Virus record (IMG/VR): IMGVR_UViG_2700989044_000001
Span: 75,683 to 139,682 of that record
DNA length: 64,000 nucleotides
Source: a virus
Taxonomy: Duplodnaviria > Heunggongvirae > Uroviricota > Caudoviricetes
Reading direction: 5' to 3' (one strand)
Every line of letters starts with the position of its first letter. Position 1 is the stretch's first letter. The notes beneath the pieces are model-generated. The model saw only the letters and a program-made list of their open reading frames with translations. It ran no database searches and had not been told where the DNA came from. Of this stretch, positions 3,004 through 24,648 are shown one piece after another. The position numbers and the translations under genes are program-made.

Positions 3004-4134
3004 ATGGCTGGTACTAAAATTGGTTTTCTTTGTTTTGGTGAAGGCGGTTCAAATGTTGGAGAGTATGCTGCTCAAAAAGGTTTTCCAGTAGTTGCAGTCA
3101 ATAGCGCTAAAATAGATTTAGAAAAAATAAAAATAATTCCAAAAGATTGTAGGATTCACTTGGATGGCTGGGAAGGTGCTGGCAGAAATAGAGATGTAGG
3201 TAGGGAAGCAGTTCTATCTCACGCAGAAACAATCTTTGAAAAGATAAAAGATAAATTTAAAGATTGTGACATGGTGTTTTCAGTAGCTTCAACAGCTGGC
3301 GGTACAGGTTCAGGATCTTTAGCGGTTGGTATCGAACTTCTTTCAGAAATAAATAGTAAAGTTGGAGCGATAACTATTTTGCCAGACAAAAATGAAAGCC
3401 CAAAAGCTCATATGAATTCTTTAGAATGTTTCTCTGAGTTAAGCCAATACGAACAATTGAATAGTACGTTTATCATTGATAATGAAAAAGCAAATCAAGT
3501 ATTTAAAGGCAAAGACAAAATTCAAATTTATCAATTATCTAATAATCAATTGATTGACAATTTAGCGGAAATATGCTCACTAACCGATCAACACGCTTTA
3601 GTTTCAAATTTTGATAAAAATGATCTACTTGAAATACTAAGTGAACGAGGAACCACTATAATTAGCAAGATAACAATACCAACAGAAGAATTGAAAGATG
3701 AAGTAGAAATTGTTAATGCAATTAGAAAATCTTGGGAAACTGTTTGTTCTTCTGACATTGGTGATGGGCAAATAGTAAAAGCTGGTGTATTTGGTAAAAT
3801 ACCAAAAGAATTAACTTCAATGATAGATTCAAGAAAAGTTTTTGAAGAAATTGGAATGCCATATGATATAATTGAATCTTACTATTTGAATACTGAACAC
3901 TCTAATCATTGTATTTTCTATACTATTCTTTCTGGATTATCCTACCCAATTGAAAGATTGAAACAAATAGAAAGTGAAGTACAGATGATTGAACAAGAAT
4001 TGATTAATAGAGTAGAAGTTTCTAGGACCCAAGTTTTTTCAACTAATAATTGGAACTCTAAGTTTAAACGACCTGAACAAAAACAAAATGTTAAAACATC
4101 GTTAAGTGATAGATTAACAAGATTTACTAAGTAA
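3004..4134 (+). CDS. tubZ: Tubulin/FtsZ-family GTPase, TubZ/RepX-like
   Basis: GFLCFGEGGSNV, GAGRNRDVG, tubulin signature AGGTGSG, IIDNEK, NFDKND T7-like loop. Confidence 0.9.
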   Translation: MAGTKIGFLCFGEGGSNVGEYAAQKGFPVVAVNSAKIDLEKIKIIPKDCRIHLDGWEGAGRNRDVGREAVLSHAETIFEKIKDKFKDCDMVFSVASTAGGTGSGSLAVGIELLSEINSKVGAITILPDKNESPKAHMNSLECFSELSQYEQLNSTFIIDNEKANQVFKGKDKIQIYQLSNNQLIDNLAEICSLTDQHALVSNFDKNDLLEILSERGTTIISKITIPTEELKDEVEIVNAIRKSWETVCSSDIGDGQIVKAGVFGKIPKELTSMIDSRKVFEEIGMPYDIIESYYLNTEHSNHCIFYTILSGLSYPIERLKQIESEVQMIEQELINRVEVSRTQVFSTNNWNSKFKRPEQKQNVKTSLSDRLTRFTK

Positions 4135-8958: not shown

Positions 8959-9282
8959 ATGATTTGTGATACTAGAGACTTAAGAACTTCGTTAAAGCTA
9001 AATCAGGTTGCTGTTTGTATCGATGAGCCAACACAAAAAGTCTATTGTTCGGAACAAGGTTTATTTCAAATTACGAATACGGGAACATCATTAGAATTCA
9101 GACCATCTTTATTTGAAGATAAAAAGTGGTATATCGATGAAAAAGATGTAAATGTTATGTCTGATAATGAAATGAAAGTAAAACTGGAAGAATTAAACAC
9201 TAAGCAAATAAAAATAATTTCAATTGCGGTTTGCGTATTATGGTTTGTTTTTGTTGGTGGATGTACAATAGTAAATGCATAA
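8959..9282 (+). CDS. Hypothetical protein with C-terminal TM
   Basis: RBS ggaaggg; hydrophobic C-terminus. Confidence 0.6.
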   Translation: MICDTRDLRTSLKLNQVAVCIDEPTQKVYCSEQGLFQITNTGTSLEFRPSLFEDKKWYIDEKDVNVMSDNEMKVKLEELNTKQIKIISIAVCVLWFVFVGGCTIVNA

Positions 9283-9345
9283 ATATTTAAATAAATTAGA
9301 ATATTTACTAATATTTACAAATATCTTTTAAAATTTAAGAATATA

Positions 9346-9378
9346 AAAAAACCTCTTAGAAAAACTAAGAGGTTTTTT
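9346..9378. terminator. Bidirectional terminator between convergent genes
   Basis: aaaaaacctcttag-aaaaa-ctaagaggtttttt. Confidence 0.8.
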
Positions 9379-10201
9379 AAATTAGATTTTCAAATGTTGT
9401 AAAGTGACATTTTAAATCTGAAGAATGTTTATCTATGAACTTAGAATAGTAATTATTTAGTTTGCTAAGTCTCTTTCTGTCGTTTAAGATGAAAATTATT
9501 GGTATAGTTACAGGAGCTTCGAATGGTTGCCAATCGTGACACTTGAAGTCAGAGCTATTAAAAAAATAATTATGATAAGCATCTATCTTCTTGTTGAGTA
9601 CATCTTGATTTTCCGTAGATAAGTCAATTTCAAAAAATGCATAATTGTCGTTTTCATTGTTAAGCCAATATGAAAAACAATCTGGTCTAATTTCGTACTC
9701 TTTTGATCCTACAGAATACTTTAGTTTTATTTCTTGTTTCCAATCAAGTACTTCATATTTACTAGCTAACCCAGAAAATACCTCACTTACAGCAACAGTA
9801 TGTCTCCATTTTTGGTTTAATTTTTTAATAGGTCTGAATAGTTTTATATCTAATAGTTTTGATCCAGGTCTTGTTAGTACATAATGATATTCCGAAGAGC
9901 CTTCCCCTATGGATAATCTTGGAGAAAATCTATCTACACACCCTAATGAGAATAATTTTTTCATAGTTTTTAAAGTTGATTTATCTGGTGAGTTACTATC
10001 TGGATAAAATATCTTAGCTATTTGAGAAGTAGTAACTATTTTGTTCATGTTGATCATTTTGAGTATTTTGATATCTTTGTCATTAAGCCTAAGTTTAAGT
10101 TCGTTTATATAGTGAGCATTAGACTTTTTAACTGCTTCTTCGTGTAAATCTCTTAGCTTTCTATTCCTCTCCATTAATAGACAAACATCAGACGTAATCA
10201 T
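9377..10201 (-). CDS. Replication-relaxation (Replic_Relax) family relaxase-like protein
   Basis: N-terminal wHTH (IVTTSQIAKIF...LFSLGCV), GEGSSEYHYVLTRPG, RHTVAV, IRPD, FFEIDLSTE; the only long minus-strand gene, RBS aggagg on minus strand. Confidence 0.8.
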   Translation of the reverse strand: MITSDVCLLMERNRKLRDLHEEAVKKSNAHYINELKLRLNDKDIKILKMINMNKIVTTSQIAKIFYPDSNSPDKSTLKTMKKLFSLGCVDRFSPRLSIGEGSSEYHYVLTRPGSKLLDIKLFRPIKKLNQKWRHTVAVSEVFSGLASKYEVLDWKQEIKLKYSVGSKEYEIRPDCFSYWLNNENDNYAFFEIDLSTENQDVLNKKIDAYHNYFFNSSDFKCHDWQPFEAPVTIPIIFILNDRKRLSKLNNYYSKFIDKHSSDLKCHFTTFENLI

Positions 10202-10252
10202 AAATAACCTCCTTTTATTATATAGATATTCTAATTAATCAAAAATGATACC

Positions 10253-10383
10253 AGAAATTGGTTAATTTCTATGGTTAATTTCTTTTGATATTAACTGTGA
10301 TGTGTCTCCAACTATAAACAGTTGATGGATTTTTAAGGCGTGACCGTGCAAATCCTTCCTATCTCATTTTCAATGAGATGGAA
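10253..10383. repeat. Inverted/direct repeat cluster, candidate oriT or operator
   Basis: IR agaaatt-ggtt-aatttct (10253-10270); DR tggttaatttct x2 (10259, 10272); hairpin ttcc-t-atctcatt-ttc-aatgagat-ggaa (10356-10383). Confidence 0.45.
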
Positions 10384-10454
10384 CCTTGAGGAGGTTGGTG
10401 ATAAAAAAAATGAAAAATTTCTCAACGAAAAACTTTTTATTTTTTTGTGTCTCT

Positions 10455-10477
10455 TTTTTCGTCGTGGTGAATATAAT
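10455..10477 (+). promoter_or_regulatory. Putative promoter motif TTTTTC.TCGT..GTGAATATAAT (copy 1)
   Basis: Near-identical copy at 13105-13128; GTGAATATA also at 10762. Confidence 0.45.
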
Positions 10478-10513
10478 GAAAATATAACAAAGAAAAAAAG
10501 ATGGTGATAAATT

Positions 10514-10696
10514 TTGTTAGATAAAATAGAAGATTTAACTTTAGAATTTCTATTTGTTATTACTGATTTTGTTTATAAGATAGTAATTAACATAATAGAA
10601 AATTATATTGTTACAAGTGATGTCTGGCCAAAGTTGATTTTTGTAGGTATTATTTTCTGGATGTTTAAGAAGAAAAGAGTGGTGAGGAAAAAATAG
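10514..10696 (+). CDS. Small membrane protein at start of T4SS-like cluster
   Basis: Hydrophobic C-terminal helix followed by KKKR. Confidence 0.55.
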   Translation: MLDKIEDLTLEFLFVITDFVYKIVINIIENYIVTSDVWPKLIFVGIIFWMFKKKRVVRKK

Positions 10697-10810
10697 ATAA
10701 TTTCCTTATTATATAGGAAGGAAAAATAAATTTCTAATTCTTTGTAACATTTGATATTATTGTGAATATATTGATAATATAAGGTGGAAAATAAAAGGAG
10801 GAAACATAAC

Positions 10811-11269
10811 ATGGCTGAGTATTCGTTTGCTGATAGTAAATATGAGTCATTGGCTCAAGATTTAATTGATGCAGACCCAATTGATTTAGGTCATATCGAT
10901 GTTAGTGCAATTGCTTTTCTGAATAAAGAAGAGAAAAATCCAAAGTGGCCTTTTAGAATAATACCAATAAGAGAACCACTAACTATGTTAACTAAGTTTG
11001 AGTATTACGTTGAAATATGCGAATCACTATTAGAAAATGCAACTAAAGAACATATCGAATTACATATCTATAAAATTCTAAGACAAATTGATAAAGAGAG
11101 TGGAAGAATCATACATCCAAATGTTATTGAGTTTAGCGACATAATAGATTTGTTCGGTTATGACTGGCAAGAAAAGAAAATGTTACCTTCTATTATAGAT
11201 CAATTAGATGCAAAGACAGTTGCAAATACTTTGGTAGGTAACACTAGTGGACCGCCTAGCGTAATTTAA
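10811..11269 (+). CDS. Phage putative-metallopeptidase-like protein with degenerate zinc motif
   Basis: RBS aaggagg before ATG 10811; LHIYKILRQI...HPNVIEFSDII...YDW; paralog of 308-784. Confidence 0.5.
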   Translation: MAEYSFADSKYESLAQDLIDADPIDLGHIDVSAIAFLNKEEKNPKWPFRIIPIREPLTMLTKFEYYVEICESLLENATKEHIELHIYKILRQIDKESGRIIHPNVIEFSDIIDLFGYDWQEKKMLPSIIDQLDAKTVANTLVGNTSGPPSVI

Positions 11270-11288
11270 AATAAAGGAGAGAAGGTAA

Positions 11289-11753
11289 ATGAAAAAACAT
11301 TACGAAGTAGTCGGGACTATTGCGGAGTTAGATCTTAGGGAGTTAATAACTGAAAAAGAAAATAGCTTCGACGTTAATAAAGAAAAATTAAAGTTTATAG
11401 TTTCTGCAGCACTTTCAACTCTAATATTTTCATTAGTTTTTCAGGATCCATCTTTAGCAGCTAATGGTGAAATGATACAAACTGCTTCTTCCAATTTTAA
11501 AACTCCTACACAGTTAAATCACATACTGGAATTTGTTAGTTGGATAATCGATTTATTGAAATACATTTTATCGGGAATTGCAGGTTTAATTTGTACATTC
11601 GCTGGTTATAAGTGGGCTACATCTTTAGAAGGTAATGGCCAAGAAGCTGCTAAGAAAATTCTAAAGAATGCATTTGTAGGTGGCGTAATAGTTTGGACAG
11701 GTTCTTCAATAGCTGGATTCTTTGTGGATAAAATGAATGAAATATTAGGGTAG
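11289..11753 (+). CDS. VirB2/TrbC-like pilin
   Basis: Leader ending in PSLA, then two hydrophobic helices separated by EAAKKILKNAFVGGVIV. Confidence 0.7.
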   Translation: MKKHYEVVGTIAELDLRELITEKENSFDVNKEKLKFIVSAALSTLIFSLVFQDPSLAANGEMIQTASSNFKTPTQLNHILEFVSWIIDLLKYILSGIAGLICTFAGYKWATSLEGNGQEAAKKILKNAFVGGVIVWTGSSIAGFFVDKMNEILG

Positions 11754-11767
11754 TTTGGAGGGAGAAA

Positions 11768-11905
11768 ATGAGAGACCCATATAGTAAGATATTTGTTTAT
11801 ACAGTCGCAGGATTTTGCGGCGTTGCTGGTTTTATCATAACATATATTGCTATTGGTTATCTATTTAAGCCGGCGGAAACTTGGATTGAAAATAAAATGA
11901 GATAA
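11768..11905 (+). CDS. 45-aa single-TM protein (not in ORF track)
   Basis: RBS ggagggag; MRDPYSKIFVYTVAGFCGVAGFIITYIAIGYLFKPAETWIENKMR. Confidence 0.6.
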   Translation: MRDPYSKIFVYTVAGFCGVAGFIITYIAIGYLFKPAETWIENKMR

Positions 11906-11939
11906 AAAATAAAAATTGATAAAATAAGGGGGAAATTTA

Positions 11940-12089
11940 ATGTTTACTACTATTAGTGCAGTTGTTGGGACTGTTTTTCAATTTTATGTTGCCTCTAGAG
12001 TTTGCGTAGGTATTTTCAAAAATGTAAAAAACAAGTTAGAGAGTAATCAAGTTGAAAGTGAATCTCTAGACAGTAAGAAGGTGATTTAA
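11940..12089 (+). CDS. 49-aa hydrophobic-N-terminus protein (not in ORF track)
   Basis: RBS aaggggg; stop abuts GTG of VirB6-like gene. Confidence 0.55.
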   Translation: MFTTISAVVGTVFQFYVASRVCVGIFKNVKNKLESNQVESESLDSKKVI

Positions 12090-13049
12090 GTGGATTGGAG
12101 CTTAGGGATAACGGAATCTATTAAAAAAGAAGTCGGTGAAAGTTGGGAATTAATAAAAGAGAATATTGGAGATTTCTTCCTATATTTATCACAACAATTA
12201 CAAGAAGGAGCAAATAGTTTTTTAGCAGAAATGCTAGATTTCGTACTCTATACTCCTTTAGTAGCTGATAATGAAATCATTTTATCTATTTGGGCGACAG
12301 TTAGAATTATTTCATTTGCACTCATTGGTGTAATGTTCGTTTGGGAAGGATTTAAGAAAGTTATTTCAACCGACAATATTATAAGACATGTGGAGTTTAA
12401 AGAAATGTTTGTAAGGATGGTTTACGGAATAGTATTAGCTGTTTTTAGCTTAGACATTATTGATTTGATGATTAACTTTAACAATGTTTTAATCGATACA
12501 GTGAAAAGTTCTTTCCCAATGACATTAGAATCTAAGTTAAATATAAATGGAGTATTCAGCTTCCTTATGGTATTAGCTTTAGTAATAGTTCAAGTTGTAT
12601 TAGGAATAAAACTCGTCTTACAGTACTGGATGCGTATAGCAGAGATATGGCTCATGGCTGTATTAGGTCCTCTGGTATACGTACTATGGATAAACCCTGG
12701 CTCGAAATTAAGTGGAGTTTTATCGCAGTGGGTAAGCAGGCTTACAACTACAATATTTACTACATTCATATGGGCTTTAATTTTAGCAATTTATTCTGGT
12801 ATGGTGAGTATGATAGCTTCTGCTGGCATGTTAGCTGGTTTCCCTACTCTAGGTCCAATTGCAGGAATTTGTTTATCAATAGCCATGTTGCTAATTATGA
12901 TTGAAACACCAGCATTCTTAAGGAGTTTTATGGACAACCAACCTAATGCATTGCATTTAGTTAAGAAAGTTTATACCAACGTTAAATCAAGTACGCCTAT
13001 GGGGTTTGCTAATAAAGCTGCTGGATGGATACTACCTAGTAAAACGTAA
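12090..13049 (+). CDS. VirB6/TrbL-like polytopic membrane protein
   Basis: About 6 TMs; RIAEIWLMAVLGPLVYVLW...W motif; position between pilin and PrgI/VirB4. Confidence 0.75.
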   Translation: MDWSLGITESIKKEVGESWELIKENIGDFFLYLSQQLQEGANSFLAEMLDFVLYTPLVADNEIILSIWATVRIISFALIGVMFVWEGFKKVISTDNIIRHVEFKEMFVRMVYGIVLAVFSLDIIDLMINFNNVLIDTVKSSFPMTLESKLNINGVFSFLMVLALVIVQVVLGIKLVLQYWMRIAEIWLMAVLGPLVYVLWINPGSKLSGVLSQWVSRLTTTIFTTFIWALILAIYSGMVSMIASAGMLAGFPTLGPIAGICLSIAMLLIMIETPAFLRSFMDNQPNALHLVKKVYTNVKSSTPMGFANKAAGWILPSKT

Positions 13050-13071
13050 TTTATTTAAATTACGTTTTTTT
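13041..13071 (+). terminator. Terminator within T4SS cluster
   Basis: aaaacgtaattt-attt-aaattacgtttt plus T run. Confidence 0.6.
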
Positions 13072-13104
13072 ATTTTTTTAAATTATTTACCATATTTTAG
13101 GTCA

Positions 13105-13128
13105 TTTTTCATCGTTAGTGAATATAAT
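13105..13128 (+). promoter_or_regulatory. Putative promoter motif (copy 2)
   Basis: tttttcatcgttagtgaatataat, matches 10455-10477. Confidence 0.45.
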
Positions 13129-13153
13129 AATTATATAAGGAGGAGGAAATAAT

Positions 13154-13531
13154 ATGATAGAGAAAGAACCATTATGTGCTATACCAAGAAATTTAAATGA
13201 GCCAGATACTATTATCCACTATCCTGTAAAGTTAAATTGGAAACAAATTAGTTATATTTGCGTAGGTGTAGCGGGAGCATATTTTGCTTTTCAAACTGGG
13301 TTACCTATTGAATATAAAACTGCTTTAATGGCTGGTAGCGTTGGAACTTCATTAGTTACTAGTTTAATAAAATATGAAGATTCTACTATTGATGAATTGG
13401 TAATTGATAGTTTGCACTATGCTCAGAAGAAAAATATCTATAGACAACTAGAGAAACGAGGTGCAATGAATGTCAAATTCAACTCTTATGAAGAAAAAAT
13501 CACCGGAGATTATGCCTTTTCAGAGTTCTAG
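13154..13531 (+). CDS. prgI: PrgI/VirB3-like membrane protein
   Basis: IPRNLNEPD.I..P..LNWKQISY N-terminus, two TMs, overlaps virB4 start. Confidence 0.7.
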   Translation: MIEKEPLCAIPRNLNEPDTIIHYPVKLNWKQISYICVGVAGAYFAFQTGLPIEYKTALMAGSVGTSLVTSLIKYEDSTIDELVIDSLHYAQKKNIYRQLEKRGAMNVKFNSYEEKITGDYAFSEF

Positions 13532-15161
13532 TCTCCGCAAAGTATTAAAGGTTTCATCAGTCAATTTAGGGTTTAAATCCTACAATGATAAACTTGCTAT
13601 TGTTGAAAATTTCGGTAGATTTTTAAACTCTTTAACTCATCCTATACAAATAGTTAGTGATACAAAGTTGATAAATCCAGATGAATGGCTATTAAAAATG
13701 CCAGATCAAGATTATTATGAATTCTTAAAAGACTTAGTAAACTCTAGTAATGTTTCAGAGAAAATATTTTACATAGCTTATACTGCGCAAGATGAGTCAG
13801 AATTAAAGATAATAACAGATGCTTTAAGGAGTGGAATTAAAAGGTGTCGTCTATTGGCAGAAGAAGTTGAACCCGAAATTTCACAAAGCATACCAGTGCT
13901 TAAACCAGGACATGTTAAAGTTGGTGATTGGTATAATCATACTTTGATAGTAAAGAATTGGCCACATAGCTGCGTATCGGGTTGGTTAGAAAACCTGTAC
14001 AATTTAGACAAAAACATAACTTTATCAATGTTTATAGAGCCACAAAATAAACAAGATTCTATTAAATACATTAGCAAGAGACTAGCAAGATTGCAATCTA
14101 ACTCAATTATTAAAGATAAAGAAAATAAAACTAATGGCGAAGAAGATGAAAGTATTGCAACTGGTCTAAATATGAGAGAAGAACTAATGAGAAATGAAGG
14201 TAATTTCTTTTTCGTTAGTTATTACATTACTGTTAAAGCAAAAAGTTTAGAACAATTAAAAAGAGATACAAAATTTGTAAAAACTATTTTAAACGGAATG
14301 ATGATTGAAACGTCTAAAGCTACTTTAAGACATGATGATGGATATAGATGTTCACTCCCACTTATGCAAAATAACCTTCGTTCTAAAGCTGCGTATACAT
14401 TCACAACTACCCCACTAAAGAGATTTTTCCCTTTTATGTCTGCTAATATAGTTGATAAAGGCGGAATAATGATTGGTAGCAATTTATTAAATAATTCATT
14501 AATTTTCTTAGATCACTTTAGTTATTCAACAGCGAGTATGGTTGTTATAGGAAAGACTGGTTCTGGTAAATCATTTACTGTAAAAGCTCAAATAGATAAG
14601 CTGGTAAAACAGGGAGTGGAAGTAACTGTTTTAGATATAGAAAAAGAATTTGATAGGATGCAAAAGCATAAGAATTTAATAGTAAAACACTTTGGGACCA
14701 AGGTTGAACAGTACAAACAATTCTTATTTGACTATTGGGAAGAAGTAAATAATGGACCTAAAAAACCAAGATTTTTAGTAATTGATGAGTTTTGGAGCTA
14801 TAAAAAAGATCCGGAAATAGCTGATTTATTGCAAAAAATGGCTAAGTTAGGAAGAAAGAGATGGTTAGGTATTTGTCCGATTACTCAAGAAGTAAATGAT
14901 ATGTTAAGTGATGAATTCTCTAAGAGTCTAATAAATAATTCCAGTATAAAAATTATTTTACAAATTGATCCTAATCAAAGAAAATTAGTACAAGAAACTT
15001 TTGGTTTGACAGATTCTGAAGTATCTTTCTTAATTGGTGCATCTGAGGGTGAAGGAATATTGTTCGCAGGTACAAATCATGTGCAATTTAAAACAATTGT
15101 ATCAGATAAACAATATGCGCAAATAACGACAAAGCCACAGGAGTTATATCAAGTTAGTTAA
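13470..15161 (+). CDS. virB4: VirB4-like ATPase (compact)
   Basis: Walker A VIGKTGSGKS, Walker B LVIDEFW, RKRW...ITQEV.D, GASEGEG, N-terminal FFVSYYITV segment. Confidence 0.85.
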   Translation: MSNSTLMKKKSPEIMPFQSSSLRKVLKVSSVNLGFKSYNDKLAIVENFGRFLNSLTHPIQIVSDTKLINPDEWLLKMPDQDYYEFLKDLVNSSNVSEKIFYIAYTAQDESELKIITDALRSGIKRCRLLAEEVEPEISQSIPVLKPGHVKVGDWYNHTLIVKNWPHSCVSGWLENLYNLDKNITLSMFIEPQNKQDSIKYISKRLARLQSNSIIKDKENKTNGEEDESIATGLNMREELMRNEGNFFFVSYYITVKAKSLEQLKRDTKFVKTILNGMMIETSKATLRHDDGYRCSLPLMQNNLRSKAAYTFTTTPLKRFFPFMSANIVDKGGIMIGSNLLNNSLIFLDHFSYSTASMVVIGKTGSGKSFTVKAQIDKLVKQGVEVTVLDIEKEFDRMQKHKNLIVKHFGTKVEQYKQFLFDYWEEVNNGPKKPRFLVIDEFWSYKKDPEIADLLQKMAKLGRKRWLGICPITQEVNDMLSDEFSKSLINNSSIKIILQIDPNQRKLVQETFGLTDSEVSFLIGASEGEGILFAGTNHVQFKTIVSDKQYAQITTKPQELYQVS

Positions 15162-15176
15162 GGAAGGAGTGTAATT

Positions 15177-17654
15177 GTGTTTAGTAAAAAAATTGAATAT
15201 CCTAAAGATAGTATTGTCATTAAATTGGAGAATGATATTGAATCTACTCATGATGATAGATCTAGTGAGGTTGAGAGTTTTTGGTCTAGTATTCATGGGT
15301 TACAAGATAAAAAAGAGCGACCAACATTTTCTTTTGAGATATTAAGTGACAAAAAAGGAGCAGCTTTTTATCTAGCTATACCTAAAAGATTTCAAAGTAT
15401 AATTGGTAAAAAGTTAAATGCAGTTTATCCATATATAGAAATTAAAGAAGTTGCTGATCCAGTTAAAGAGTTTAGTCCTAAGATAGATGAACACGTTTAT
15501 AGTTGTGAGTTAAAGTTAACAAATCATGAATCTTTTAATTTAAAGACATCGGGTTTAAGTAAGACATTTTTAAATAATTTATTAAATACTATGAACCATT
15601 TTAATGAGGATGATTCATCATTAGTGCAAATTTTAATAAAACCGTTACCAGAATCTTGGAATCATAAAGCTCAAAGAAATTCAACTAGAGCAAGGGCAAA
15701 AAGTTTTCATAGTTCAAATCCAATTGTAAAAGGATTAATGTTGATAGTAGATTTACTAGTAAGCTCGGTAATGTTAGTACTTGATTCAACAGTTACTAAT
15801 GGACAACTTAAAAAATCATTTAAAGAAGTATCCGCAACAACTACTAAAACAGAAAAAGATGATAAATTTTCAAAACCCTGTTTTAATGTTTCAGTTAGGA
15901 TTGCATCTAAATCAAAAGATGCAATTGTAGCAGAACAAACAGCTAAGAGTATATCAACAGTGTTCCAAAATTTAGATAGTGAAAACAAACTAAGACCTAA
16001 AAAAATAACTTTTAAATCTATAGAAGAAAGGTTTGAAGAACCAAAGACATTTAAAAATAGCGCGTTAAATGTACAAGAAATGTCCCAGTTTATACATTTA
16101 CCTGGGAAAGGTGTATCCGCTGATAATGTCGGTAAAGGAAATGTAAAAATGCCATATGACAAAAATGTTCCATCTAAAGGAATAGTTTTTGGATATAGCC
16201 CGCAAAAAGATAATAAACCTGTTGCTTTCCCTATGAAAGTTATTTCTTTAGAAAAATACGACGAATTATATGACGAATATGAAAAGCTAATCGATAACTT
16301 ATGTAAGCCTAGATTGGTTTTAGGTCAAATGGGTACTGGGAAAAGTGAGTGGGTAGTTAATTATACTCTTAGTTTAATTAATGCGGGACTATCTGTAATT
16401 ATTGTAGATCCTAAAAATGATACTCAAGAAAGGTTAATACAATCAATATCTGAAGATAAAATAGATAAAATTGACTACTTAAATTTAGGAGATTTAATAT
16501 TCCCTCCTGGTATGAATCTGCTGAGACGTAGAAACCCTGGCGACCCAACTGAAATATCATTAATTGTACAATCTTTAATAAGCTTCTTTAAGAAAGAATT
16601 TGGACGTTCGTGGGGCTTTGCGATGCAGCAATTAATTATGATGACTGGTAATGCTATCTTATTAGATGAAGTCGCAACTCTATACGAATTCCAATTAATG
16701 TTAACTAATAAAGAGTATAGAGCAAAAATGATAGACAAGATAGAAGCGAAAATAGCTGAAAACTCTGGTGGTAAAGCAATGTTAAAAGAGTTACTACAAT
16801 TCTGGAAACAGTTTCATAGTTGGCCAGAAAAAAATCAAATGGATCGCATTAGTTCCACAATGAATAAGATAGGCGTATTTATGAGTAATAGAATTGTAAG
16901 AGCTATAGTGTCTCAAGAAGAAAGTTATGATTTTAGAAAAGCTGGAGATAATGGAAGAATAACTATTGTTAATATTCCTGATGGAGAATTGCAAGATGAA
17001 AATAGAGAACTATTAGCATCATTTATAAATAAAGCTATTTGGTTAGATTTCCGTTCGCGAGCATCTATGCCTATAAGAAAACGTTATCCAACTATGTGGT
17101 TAATTGAAGAAGCACACATGGTTATGGATACTGAATTTATACCTGTCTTAACTCAATCTCGTGGATATCGTTTAGGCGTAACAGTATTAACTCAAGGCTT
17201 AACGAACTTTGATAATAAAGGTATGAGTGAACTTAAAGATTTAATTTTAACTAACTGCAAAAATAAAGTAGTTTTCCGTGTTGGGCCACAAGATGCTCGC
17301 GCATTAGCGGAAGAATTCTCTCCACTTACTTCATATGATTTAATGAATTGTCCAGATTATCATTTCTATTCTAAGATACTACTTGAAGATGGTAAAGTTT
17401 CAGATGTGTTCTTTGCGAATTCACCACCAGTAGCACCTGAATTAAGAGATTATCAGAAATACAAAGAAGCAAGTAGATCTGGTAAATATACAATAGATGA
17501 AATAGAGGATAGACTAGATTCAAGACATAACTTAGAAGATACATCTTCTATAATGAATTTAGGTTTATCTATGGAAGAGGAAAAAACAATTGTTAAAGAA
17601 GAAAAACCTAAAAAGAGAAGGGCTAAGCCAGGTCTAGAGTTTTTAGATAATTAA
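15177..17654 (+). CDS. virD4: VirD4/TraD-like coupling ATPase
   Basis: Walker A LVLGQMGTGKS, IIVDPKND, Walker B LIEEAH, SRGYRLGVTVLTQ, NKVVFRVG..DA. Confidence 0.8.
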   Translation: MFSKKIEYPKDSIVIKLENDIESTHDDRSSEVESFWSSIHGLQDKKERPTFSFEILSDKKGAAFYLAIPKRFQSIIGKKLNAVYPYIEIKEVADPVKEFSPKIDEHVYSCELKLTNHESFNLKTSGLSKTFLNNLLNTMNHFNEDDSSLVQILIKPLPESWNHKAQRNSTRARAKSFHSSNPIVKGLMLIVDLLVSSVMLVLDSTVTNGQLKKSFKEVSATTTKTEKDDKFSKPCFNVSVRIASKSKDAIVAEQTAKSISTVFQNLDSENKLRPKKITFKSIEERFEEPKTFKNSALNVQEMSQFIHLPGKGVSADNVGKGNVKMPYDKNVPSKGIVFGYSPQKDNKPVAFPMKVISLEKYDELYDEYEKLIDNLCKPRLVLGQMGTGKSEWVVNYTLSLINAGLSVIIVDPKNDTQERLIQSISEDKIDKIDYLNLGDLIFPPGMNLLRRRNPGDPTEISLIVQSLISFFKKEFGRSWGFAMQQLIMMTGNAILLDEVATLYEFQLMLTNKEYRAKMIDKIEAKIAENSGGKAMLKELLQFWKQFHSWPEKNQMDRISSTMNKIGVFMSNRIVRAIVSQEESYDFRKAGDNGRITIVNIPDGELQDENRELLASFINKAIWLDFRSRASMPIRKRYPTMWLIEEAHMVMDTEFIPVLTQSRGYRLGVTVLTQGLTNFDNKGMSELKDLILTNCKNKVVFRVGPQDARALAEEFSPLTSYDLMNCPDYHFYSKILLEDGKVSDVFFANSPPVAPELRDYQKYKEASRSGKYTIDEIEDRLDSRHNLEDTSSIMNLGLSMEEEKTIVKEEKPKKRRAKPGLEFLDN

Positions 17655-17739: not shown

Positions 17740-18156
17740 ATGGTTGAAGAGATACTAATACAACAGTTGTATAGCGCTAGCTTACTTAGAAAAGAAATGT
17801 ATAGTATTGAAGATGTATTGTCAAAGCGCGTAGAATCATACTTTAAAAGTAAAGATTCTAAAGTAGATTTTGATGGTGATTTGATAAAAATGAATTCTCA
17901 AAGATATGAAGTTTTTGATTTAAAAGGTATAATTTGCTGTAGTTGTGGATTAGAAGGTAGATTTTTTGCAAAAGAAAGAGGTAATGAGAGCTACCCTTAT
18001 CATTTTAATTTATATGCTGTTAATGATAAAGGCGAGGAAGTACTTATGACTAAAGATCACATTGTACCAGTTTCAAAAGGTGGTAAAAATCACATTAGTA
18101 ATTATCAAACCATGTGTATTATTTGTAATGAAAAAAAGGGAAATCAAGAGGTTTAA
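17740..18156 (+). CDS. HNH endonuclease
   Basis: CCSCG, TKDHIVPVSKGGKNHISNYQTMCIICNEKKG. Confidence 0.9.
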   Translation: MVEEILIQQLYSASLLRKEMYSIEDVLSKRVESYFKSKDSKVDFDGDLIKMNSQRYEVFDLKGIICCSCGLEGRFFAKERGNESYPYHFNLYAVNDKGEEVLMTKDHIVPVSKGGKNHISNYQTMCIICNEKKGNQEV

Positions 18157-24619: not shown

Positions 24620-24648
24620 TTTACAAAATCACAAAAATATGGTATAAT
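24620..24648 (+). promoter_or_regulatory. sigmaA-type promoter
   Basis: TTTACA-N17-TATAAT with TG. Confidence 0.7.

Follow-up and report, generated by a model that had tools for sequence, protein, structure and literature searches.

Here we find that the left part (approximately 10202-10330) of the 312-bp region at 10202-10513, upstream of a relaxase-like gene of phage G, can be read with moderate confidence as the promoter-operator of that divergently transcribed gene. The gene, which we refer to as RR, lies within the 64-kb window that we analysed (the whole stretch of 64,000 nucleotides, bases 75,683-139,682 of the 497,513-bp phage G record, which has a G+C content of ~30%; unless otherwise indicated, positions are those of the window). 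According to this reading, a palindrome that would in part have been recently duplicated, together with the 13-bp tandem duplicate, would overlap the weak -35 element of a predicted RR promoter and extend immediately upstream of it (Table 1), where the repeats would most likely be bound by a sequence-specific DNA-binding protein. The best candidate for this protein would be the winged-helix domain of the adjacent RR protein, which may thereby control its own synthesis; any cutting of DNA nearby by RR would be a matter separate from operator binding. The right part of the region (10327-10513) would comprise a structured leader followed by a small membrane-peptide ORF, and is not the start of the T4SS-like operon that lies downstream. 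We infer, in each case, the position of the promoter, the identity of the binding protein and the regulatory effect. In outline, the gene module has been known since 2012 (PMC3357382), and a 2025 paper had already pointed out two of the ATPases in phage G (PMC12484599); what is new is the unique candidate binding site beside RR, the promoter map and two uncultured relatives with the full T4SS-like arrangement, represented by the IMG/VR jumbo-phage contigs L009 and L010. The repeats look like a control or binding site and constitute a reasonable experimental lead, not a discovery; we make no claim to a demonstrated origin of DNA transfer.

Table 1 Features of RR and its surroundings in phage G (window positions).
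Feature	Position	Strand	Description
Intrinsic terminator	9346-9378		Bidirectional; 14-bp stem, T runs on both sides; ends upstream + strand genes and RR
RR gene	9377-10201	-	Relaxase-like; wHTH + PD-(D/E)XK-fold protein; PF13814 Replic_Relax, MOB_C type
RR ribosome-binding site and predicted RR promoter	10207-10256	-	Ribosome-binding site AAAGGAGGT (10215-10207); promoter predicted by analogy with the genome consensus promoter
Palindrome	10253-10270		AGAAATT-GGTT-AATTTCT (7+7, N4, 18 bp); centre ~41 bp upstream of predicted RR transcription start
Two tandem 13-bp units	10259-10284		Exact 12-mer TGGTTAATTTCT in each (10259-10270 and 10272-10283; period 13)
Second inverted repeat	10274-10295		GTTAAT...ATTAAC; overlaps repeat copy 2, abuts first hairpin
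Two adjoining hairpins	10327-10383	+	First GGATTT/AAATCC (10327-10355); second TCCTATCTCATT/AATGAGATGGAA
Ribosome-binding site and 25-aa ORF	10388-10487	+	GAGGAGG (10388-10394), then hydrophobic ORF MKNF... (ATG 10410-10487)
60-aa ORF	10514-10696	+	Hydrophobic C-terminal stretch, then basic residues (by eye)
Predicted T4SS-like operon promoter	10744-10784	+	GTAACA, 17 nt, TATATT, then ATATAAGG; same spacing as in the consensus promoter
T4SS-like operon	10811-17654	+	Metallopeptidase-like, pilin-like (T4SS pilin/TrbC-like), TrbL/VirB6-like, 125-aa protein, compact VirB4-like ATPase, VirD4-like ATPase

The initial annotation described a divergent intergenic region containing an inverted repeat, a 12-bp direct repeat, a GC-richer patch and a hairpin, and all four elements are present where it placed them. 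The region is not wholly non-coding, however: its right third carries the 25-codon ORF behind the strong ribosome-binding site GAGGAGG. The 18-bp palindrome occurs a single time across the 497,513-bp genome, and the 12-mer TGGTTAATTTCT occurs twice in the whole genome, both times in this region; matches to the 12-mer with two or fewer mismatches are at chance level in the window. The array consists of two copies, with no further degenerate copies found nearby (the pAD1 paradigm has five repeats), and it adjoins the relaxase-like gene, 58-83 bp upstream of the RR start codon. When folded as single-stranded DNA, the segments 10245-10295 and 10320-10390 gave z-scores of -4.1 and -3.5, respectively; the leader folded as RNA showed no significant structure (z -1.6). 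The second of the two adjoining hairpins has the stem TCTCATT/AATGAGA within 10357-10383. The GC-richer patch (10336-10349) is the loop of the GGATTT/AAATCC stem and is ordinary, given that 14-nt windows with at least nine G+C are present in 61 of the genome's 321 intergenic regions. No credible Rfam family was found in 9300-11300, and 9000-12000 had no blastn match among phages or plasmids.

These features might also have a neutral origin, in which a recent 13-bp slippage duplication and incidental hairpins occupy an AT-rich spacer that holds an ordinary promoter only. Indeed, the two copies are identical and could be a recent slippage duplication, and comparable short tandem duplications exist: exact direct repeats of at least 12 nt within 40 nt are found at ~31 loci genome-wide. 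(Note that the spacings at most of these loci are multiples of 3, as expected for repeats within coding sequence, a reading based on spacing alone and not on gene positions.) A neutral origin would also suit the ordinary GC patch and, as described below, the lack of conservation of the repeat in relatives. However, the duplicated unit includes one half of the perfect 7+7 palindrome, and two further hairpins are present (z about -3.5 to -4). Moreover, L009 also has a hairpin shortly ahead of the ribosome-binding site, although its sequence is not the same; this hairpin (ACTGATAT/ATATCAGT) lies ~20 nt before GAGGAGG and an MKNF... ORF, in the same relative place as in phage G. We therefore regard a purely neutral origin as rather improbable. 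Elsewhere in the genome, outside the window (G000:C1:483481-483830), we noted an iteron-like array in which the 12-mer TAATAGATAGAA (or CTAATAGATAGA) is repeated, with 25-38 bp between occurrences, at least seven times; no non-coding repeat cluster in the genome is denser, and the array is a candidate replication origin or regulator array.

Because RR is the sole minus-strand gene within the window, and because the strong bidirectional terminator ends the + strand genes upstream, the RR promoter must lie in 10202-10330. The description of the region as a regulatory hub is reasonable for that reason. The predicted RR promoter consists of a -10 element, TAGAAT (10233-10228), followed by ATCTATATAA, and a weak -35 element, TTCTGG (10256-10251). 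In particular, ATCTATATAA resembles the start region of the phage consensus promoter described below, and the sequence upstream of RR fits the -10 and start part of that consensus, not its -35 element. A generic sigma-A scan gave the promoter a modest score of 5.9 (~99.8th percentile). Measured from this predicted promoter, the centre of the palindrome would lie near -41 and the second repeat near -54, a placement that would be typical where a regulator contacts the -35 element or blocks access to it.

A k-mer analysis over 334 upstream regions yielded the very strong and highly conserved phage G consensus ('class 1') promoter, which comprises AAACAGTTTACA, 17 nt, TATAAT and AAATATATAAGG (its -35 element is also written GTTTACA). 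Approximately 130 sites score above 0, 118 of them on the + strand and 13 on the - strand, with examples in the window at 24620, 59640 and 60824. No instance was found in 10150-10560, where the best score is -23.6 compared with at least 2.8 for true instances, and the first 24 kb of the window, T4SS-like locus included, is without this promoter; a second promoter class was not derivable from the k-mers. The T4SS-like operon has its own conserved promoter (Table 1), for which L009 and L022 show promoter-like counterparts in the corresponding position and L010 a weak one; the region 10202-10513 is therefore not the start of the transfer-type operon. Between the region and the first conserved transfer-type gene lie both this separate promoter and the 60-aa ORF, for which a word-seeded search found no homologues. 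A promoter-like internal site, GTGAATATAAT...TATATAAGG, was also seen at 13095-13150, before the 125-aa and VirB4-like genes; this site, at ~13100-13140 within that stretch, resembles the promoter before the metallopeptidase-like gene.

The overlap of the repeats with the predicted promoter would also be consistent with their being the site of some other regulator, of phage or host origin, that times the expression of RR and the small ORFs while RR itself acts elsewhere. Phage G encodes many regulators, sigma factors among them (PMC12484599), and the site beside the RR gene is kept in no relative that we compared. However, a timing regulator usually has several targets, whereas this site is unique in the genome, and the adjacent wHTH protein is the simplest candidate for the binding protein. 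We consider control by another regulator to be a fairly improbable explanation of the repeats.

The assignment of RR as a relaxase-type protein is supported by comparison with known families. RR matches PF13814 Replic_Relax with an E value of 4.1e-25 (89.4 bits; curated cut-off 25.3) and also matches PHROG 9381. PF13814 has been equated with the MOB_C relaxases (PMC5357655), which are restriction-endonuclease-like and not HUH enzymes (PMC12857230, PMC5714925). A structure model of RR built from 84 homologues has a pLDDT of 94.8. In this model, residues 28-121 form a winged helix that aligns to MepR, MarR and TubR (Z 8-9), and residues 149-271 align to BglII (Z 7.0), with Foldseek matches to FokI and VC1899. 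The relaxase-type neighbour with a wHTH seen in the initial annotation is thus supported, the wHTH being N-terminal. None of H134, D174, E191 and D193 varies across the 84 homologues, and K205 hardly does, which makes it plausible that RR is a working nuclease. A tblastn search with RR against 72,556 plasmids gave no match at E 1e-5, which suggests that the phage clade is far from the relaxases that have been studied; indeed, the phage relaxase family was linked to CloDF13 MobC by profile comparison only (PMC3357382). Comparison of a profile from the RR alignment with solved structures yielded no informative match.

The fold of RR bears on where a nick might be expected. The rule that an oriT is an inverted repeat beside nic belongs to the HUH relaxases, and RR is restriction-endonuclease-like and not an HUH enzyme; the earlier placing of a nic site near 10336-10355 is a guess. 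That proposal probably had in mind the oriT of pLS20, which shares with phage G a Firmicute context and in which an inverted repeat and GC-rich DNA adjoin nic; the pLS20 relaxase RelLS20 (MOB_L), however, has an HUH/3-histidine motif (PMC5313138), unlike the restriction-endonuclease fold of RR, and the GC patch of phage G is ordinary. An assignment of Replic_Relax to the MOB_L family of pLS20 was considered and dropped, RelLS20 having been identified by that HUH/3-histidine motif (PMC5313138).

The closest homologues of RR (P0002-P0007) are 58-66% identical to it and come mostly from Logan assemblies, one of their contigs being 17.6 kb long. Two close RR homologues lie on contigs of 57,687 and 11,349 bp and VirB4-like homologues lie on contigs of equal size, so the linkage holds there too. 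Searches of viral, metagenome and genome contigs with the single protein or the first alignment found no RR relatives; relatives were reached through the VirB4-like alignment and a wider RR alignment, and scans with the VirD4-like alignment added none. L009 (175 kb) and L010 (156 kb) both retain the complete layout, in the order RR (-), gap, metallopeptidase-like, pilin-like, TrbL-like, 125-aa, VirB4-like and VirD4-like. Identity to phage G is 41% (L009) and 38% (L010) for RR, and 68% and 60%, respectively, for the VirD4-like protein. The content of the gap varies: it holds an M23 peptidase gene in L009, nothing in L010 and an unrelated + strand gene in L022. The L009 gene (L009:6664-7200; LytM-type, motif by eye), which has an N-terminal membrane segment and lies between RR and the operon, could encode a cell-wall hydrolase, a function seemingly missing from the phage G cluster.

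The annotation had proposed that its reading be judged in part by whether the repeats are conserved in relatives that retain the relaxase, and on this point the comparison, at the distance of the relatives compared, went against it. In L009 and L010, which are distant relatives (RR 38-41% identical), no tandem repeat is present upstream of RR, no palindrome lies at the equivalent place, and the best matches to the phage G repeat unit have 3-4 mismatches of 12. Local alignment of the RR-upstream region of phage G with those of L009 and L010 revealed no significant similarity or shared motif (p about 0.1 to 0.4), and even the longest-scoring word common to the three regions is at chance level. 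A 'GTTA + pyrimidines' core common to the three was likewise rejected, being at chance level. L010 has three other inverted repeats upstream of RR. These results suggest that the operator is not conserved at the locus, unless it co-varies with the RR protein. The three RR proteins do not agree in residues 72-81, which form the first half of the predicted recognition helix, so co-variation between protein and site is possible and the lack of repeat conservation is not decisive. Together with the modest sigma-A score and the existence of just two, identical repeat copies, the missing palindrome and tandem repeat in L009 and L010 count against the promoter-operator reading. In its favour are the genome-unique repeats, the fold at 10245-10295, the gene layout that places the RR promoter here, the partial match to the consensus promoter, the counterparts of the operon promoter in relatives, the MarR/TubR-like wHTH in RR and, by likeness, the statement in a review that the relaxase TraX uses a domain of this kind to bind direct repeats (PMC12857230). 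Weighing these, we would put a promoter-operator at about an even chance.

The locus combines the relaxase-family gene, VirD4-like ATPase and VirB6-like membrane protein of the "DNA translocation operon" that Pathria et al. defined in 2012 for the Bacillus phages 0305phi8-36 (orf200-207) and SPO1 (gp27.3-27.9) (PMC3357382). RR matches SPO1 gp27.3 and 0305phi8-36 orf200, and a homologue is also present in CP-51; the relaxase family is the same and, in SPO1 and CP-51, so is the VirD4-like partner. The phage G locus differs from the 2012 operon in having an extra VirB4-like ATPase and pilin-like and metallopeptidase-like proteins (SPO1, CP-51 and 0305phi8-36 lack a VirB4-like gene), and in the inverted, upstream position that the relaxase-like gene has in phage G, L009 and L010. 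In SPO1, CP-51 and 0305phi8-36 the RR homologue instead sits at the operon end, where it overlaps the end of a large upstream gene (that of the VirD4-like ATPase in SPO1 and CP-51) and has no adjoining non-coding DNA; the regions upstream of these three operons have no common repeat architecture. The 2025 paper on phage G reported TraC-like/TraD-like T4SS homologues, gp155-156, described their function in phages as "entirely unknown" and never mentioned a relaxase or an oriT (PMC12484599).

Several further observations concern the neighbourhood of these operons. Four IMG/VR contigs (L104-L107, 15-49 kb) carry a VirD4-like ATPase gene followed by an RR-like gene, as an SPO1-style pair. The SPO1 and CP-51 operons open with an actin-like (ALP/Alp7A-type) protein and three 48-73-aa proteins (SPO1 gp27.9, L006:1511-2530); in phage G there is instead a tubulin/FtsZ-like gene 6 kb upstream (3004-4134). 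The possibility that the 385-aa and 107-aa neighbours correspond to the SPO1 actin-like or gp27.8 proteins was rejected on comparison.

Conjugative plasmids have divergent oriT/promoter regions in which relaxosome proteins also repress the flanking promoters. Phage G resembles these in having a candidate protein-binding repeat between a relaxase-type gene and + strand genes, over a promoter, and differs from them in that the operon promoter is 500 bp away, with two small ORFs between. In pAD1 oriT2, nic is reportedly located inside an inverted repeat of ~140 bp (Francia and Clewell, in a 2002 paper). At 10327-10383 of phage G we found stems of 6 to 12 bp, and no large nic-bearing inverted repeat 70-120 bp from the repeats as in the pAD1 paradigm. 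What the two share is an architecture: TraX, the MOB_C prototype from the Enterococcus plasmid pAD1, and RR both pair a wHTH with a restriction-endonuclease-like domain (PMC12857230), and in both systems direct repeats adjoin the gene and structure-forming DNA lies tens of bp off. They differ in the number of repeats (five in pAD1, two in phage G) and in context, pAD1 being a conjugative plasmid and phage G a virulent megaphage.

These likenesses raise the possibility that the region is an oriT-like site, in which the wHTH of RR binds the repeats, RR nicks one strand tens of bp away (for example within 10327-10383) and the VirD4-/VirB4-like ATPases move the DNA. Such a site would be compatible with a promoter-operator. 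TraX binds five direct repeats beside its own gene and nicks 70-120 bp away (PMC12857230), so the phage G site, whose hairpins lie 45-125 bp from the repeats, could double as the 'bind' part of an oriT. The conserved acidic and basic residues of RR are consistent with this possibility, and so is the presence, beyond phage G, of at least nine phage genomes or contigs in which RR is linked to a VirD4-like ATPase, as is the fact that the cis site of the operon is a missing piece, none having been proposed in 2012 (PMC3357382). However, the array has two repeat copies only and no large inverted repeat, and L009 and L010 keep all of the genes without keeping the repeats or any motif. Moreover, because the RR homologues of SPO1, CP-51 and 0305phi8-36 lack adjoining non-coding DNA, a site beside the relaxase gene is not a trait of the family. 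The absence of RR matches among the 72,556 plasmids also argues against an oriT-like site, as does the finding that the operon is dispensable for laboratory growth of 0305phi8-36 (PMC3357382). We therefore consider an oriT-like function unlikely, and the more specific proposal that a phage G MOB_C-type nuclease recognises the palindrome and tandem repeat and cuts at the hairpins to be less likely still.

A relaxase-like nuclease and a coupling-type ATPase have been present in large phages of spore-formers since at least the split of the SPO1, CP-51 and 0305phi8-36 lineages; in phage G and the two uncultured jumbo phages this pair is joined by VirB4-, VirB6- and pilin-like parts. What is missing is the DNA substrate of the nuclease, and a genome-unique repeat beside its gene offers a concrete candidate fragment. 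If RR binds this fragment, the substrate of the whole machine would become accessible. If the fragment is in addition an oriT-like site, the T4SS-like DNA translocation operon of large Bacillus phages would for the first time have a known cis-acting 'origin', one that would mark the DNA moved by the phage VirD4/VirB4-type motors, for example into the forespore or, independently of virions, between cells. If instead it is an operator only, the search for the substrate must move elsewhere, and the non-conservation of the repeats already urges caution.

Two other genes of the cluster deserve comment. An HNH endonuclease gene (17740-18156) lies behind the VirD4-like gene; it is absent from both L009 and L010 and probably represents an insertion of the homing type. 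The VirB4-like ATPase (13470-15161) matches PHROG 2666 with an E value of 6e-272; this PHROG is labelled 'terminase large subunit', a label that looks wrong for the VirB4-like family. This compact ATPase (~560 aa) has ~28 relatives (P0159-P0186) with 40-80% identity, on contigs of up to 558, 245 and 192 kb, which suggests that further uncultured mega- or jumbo phages carry the module.
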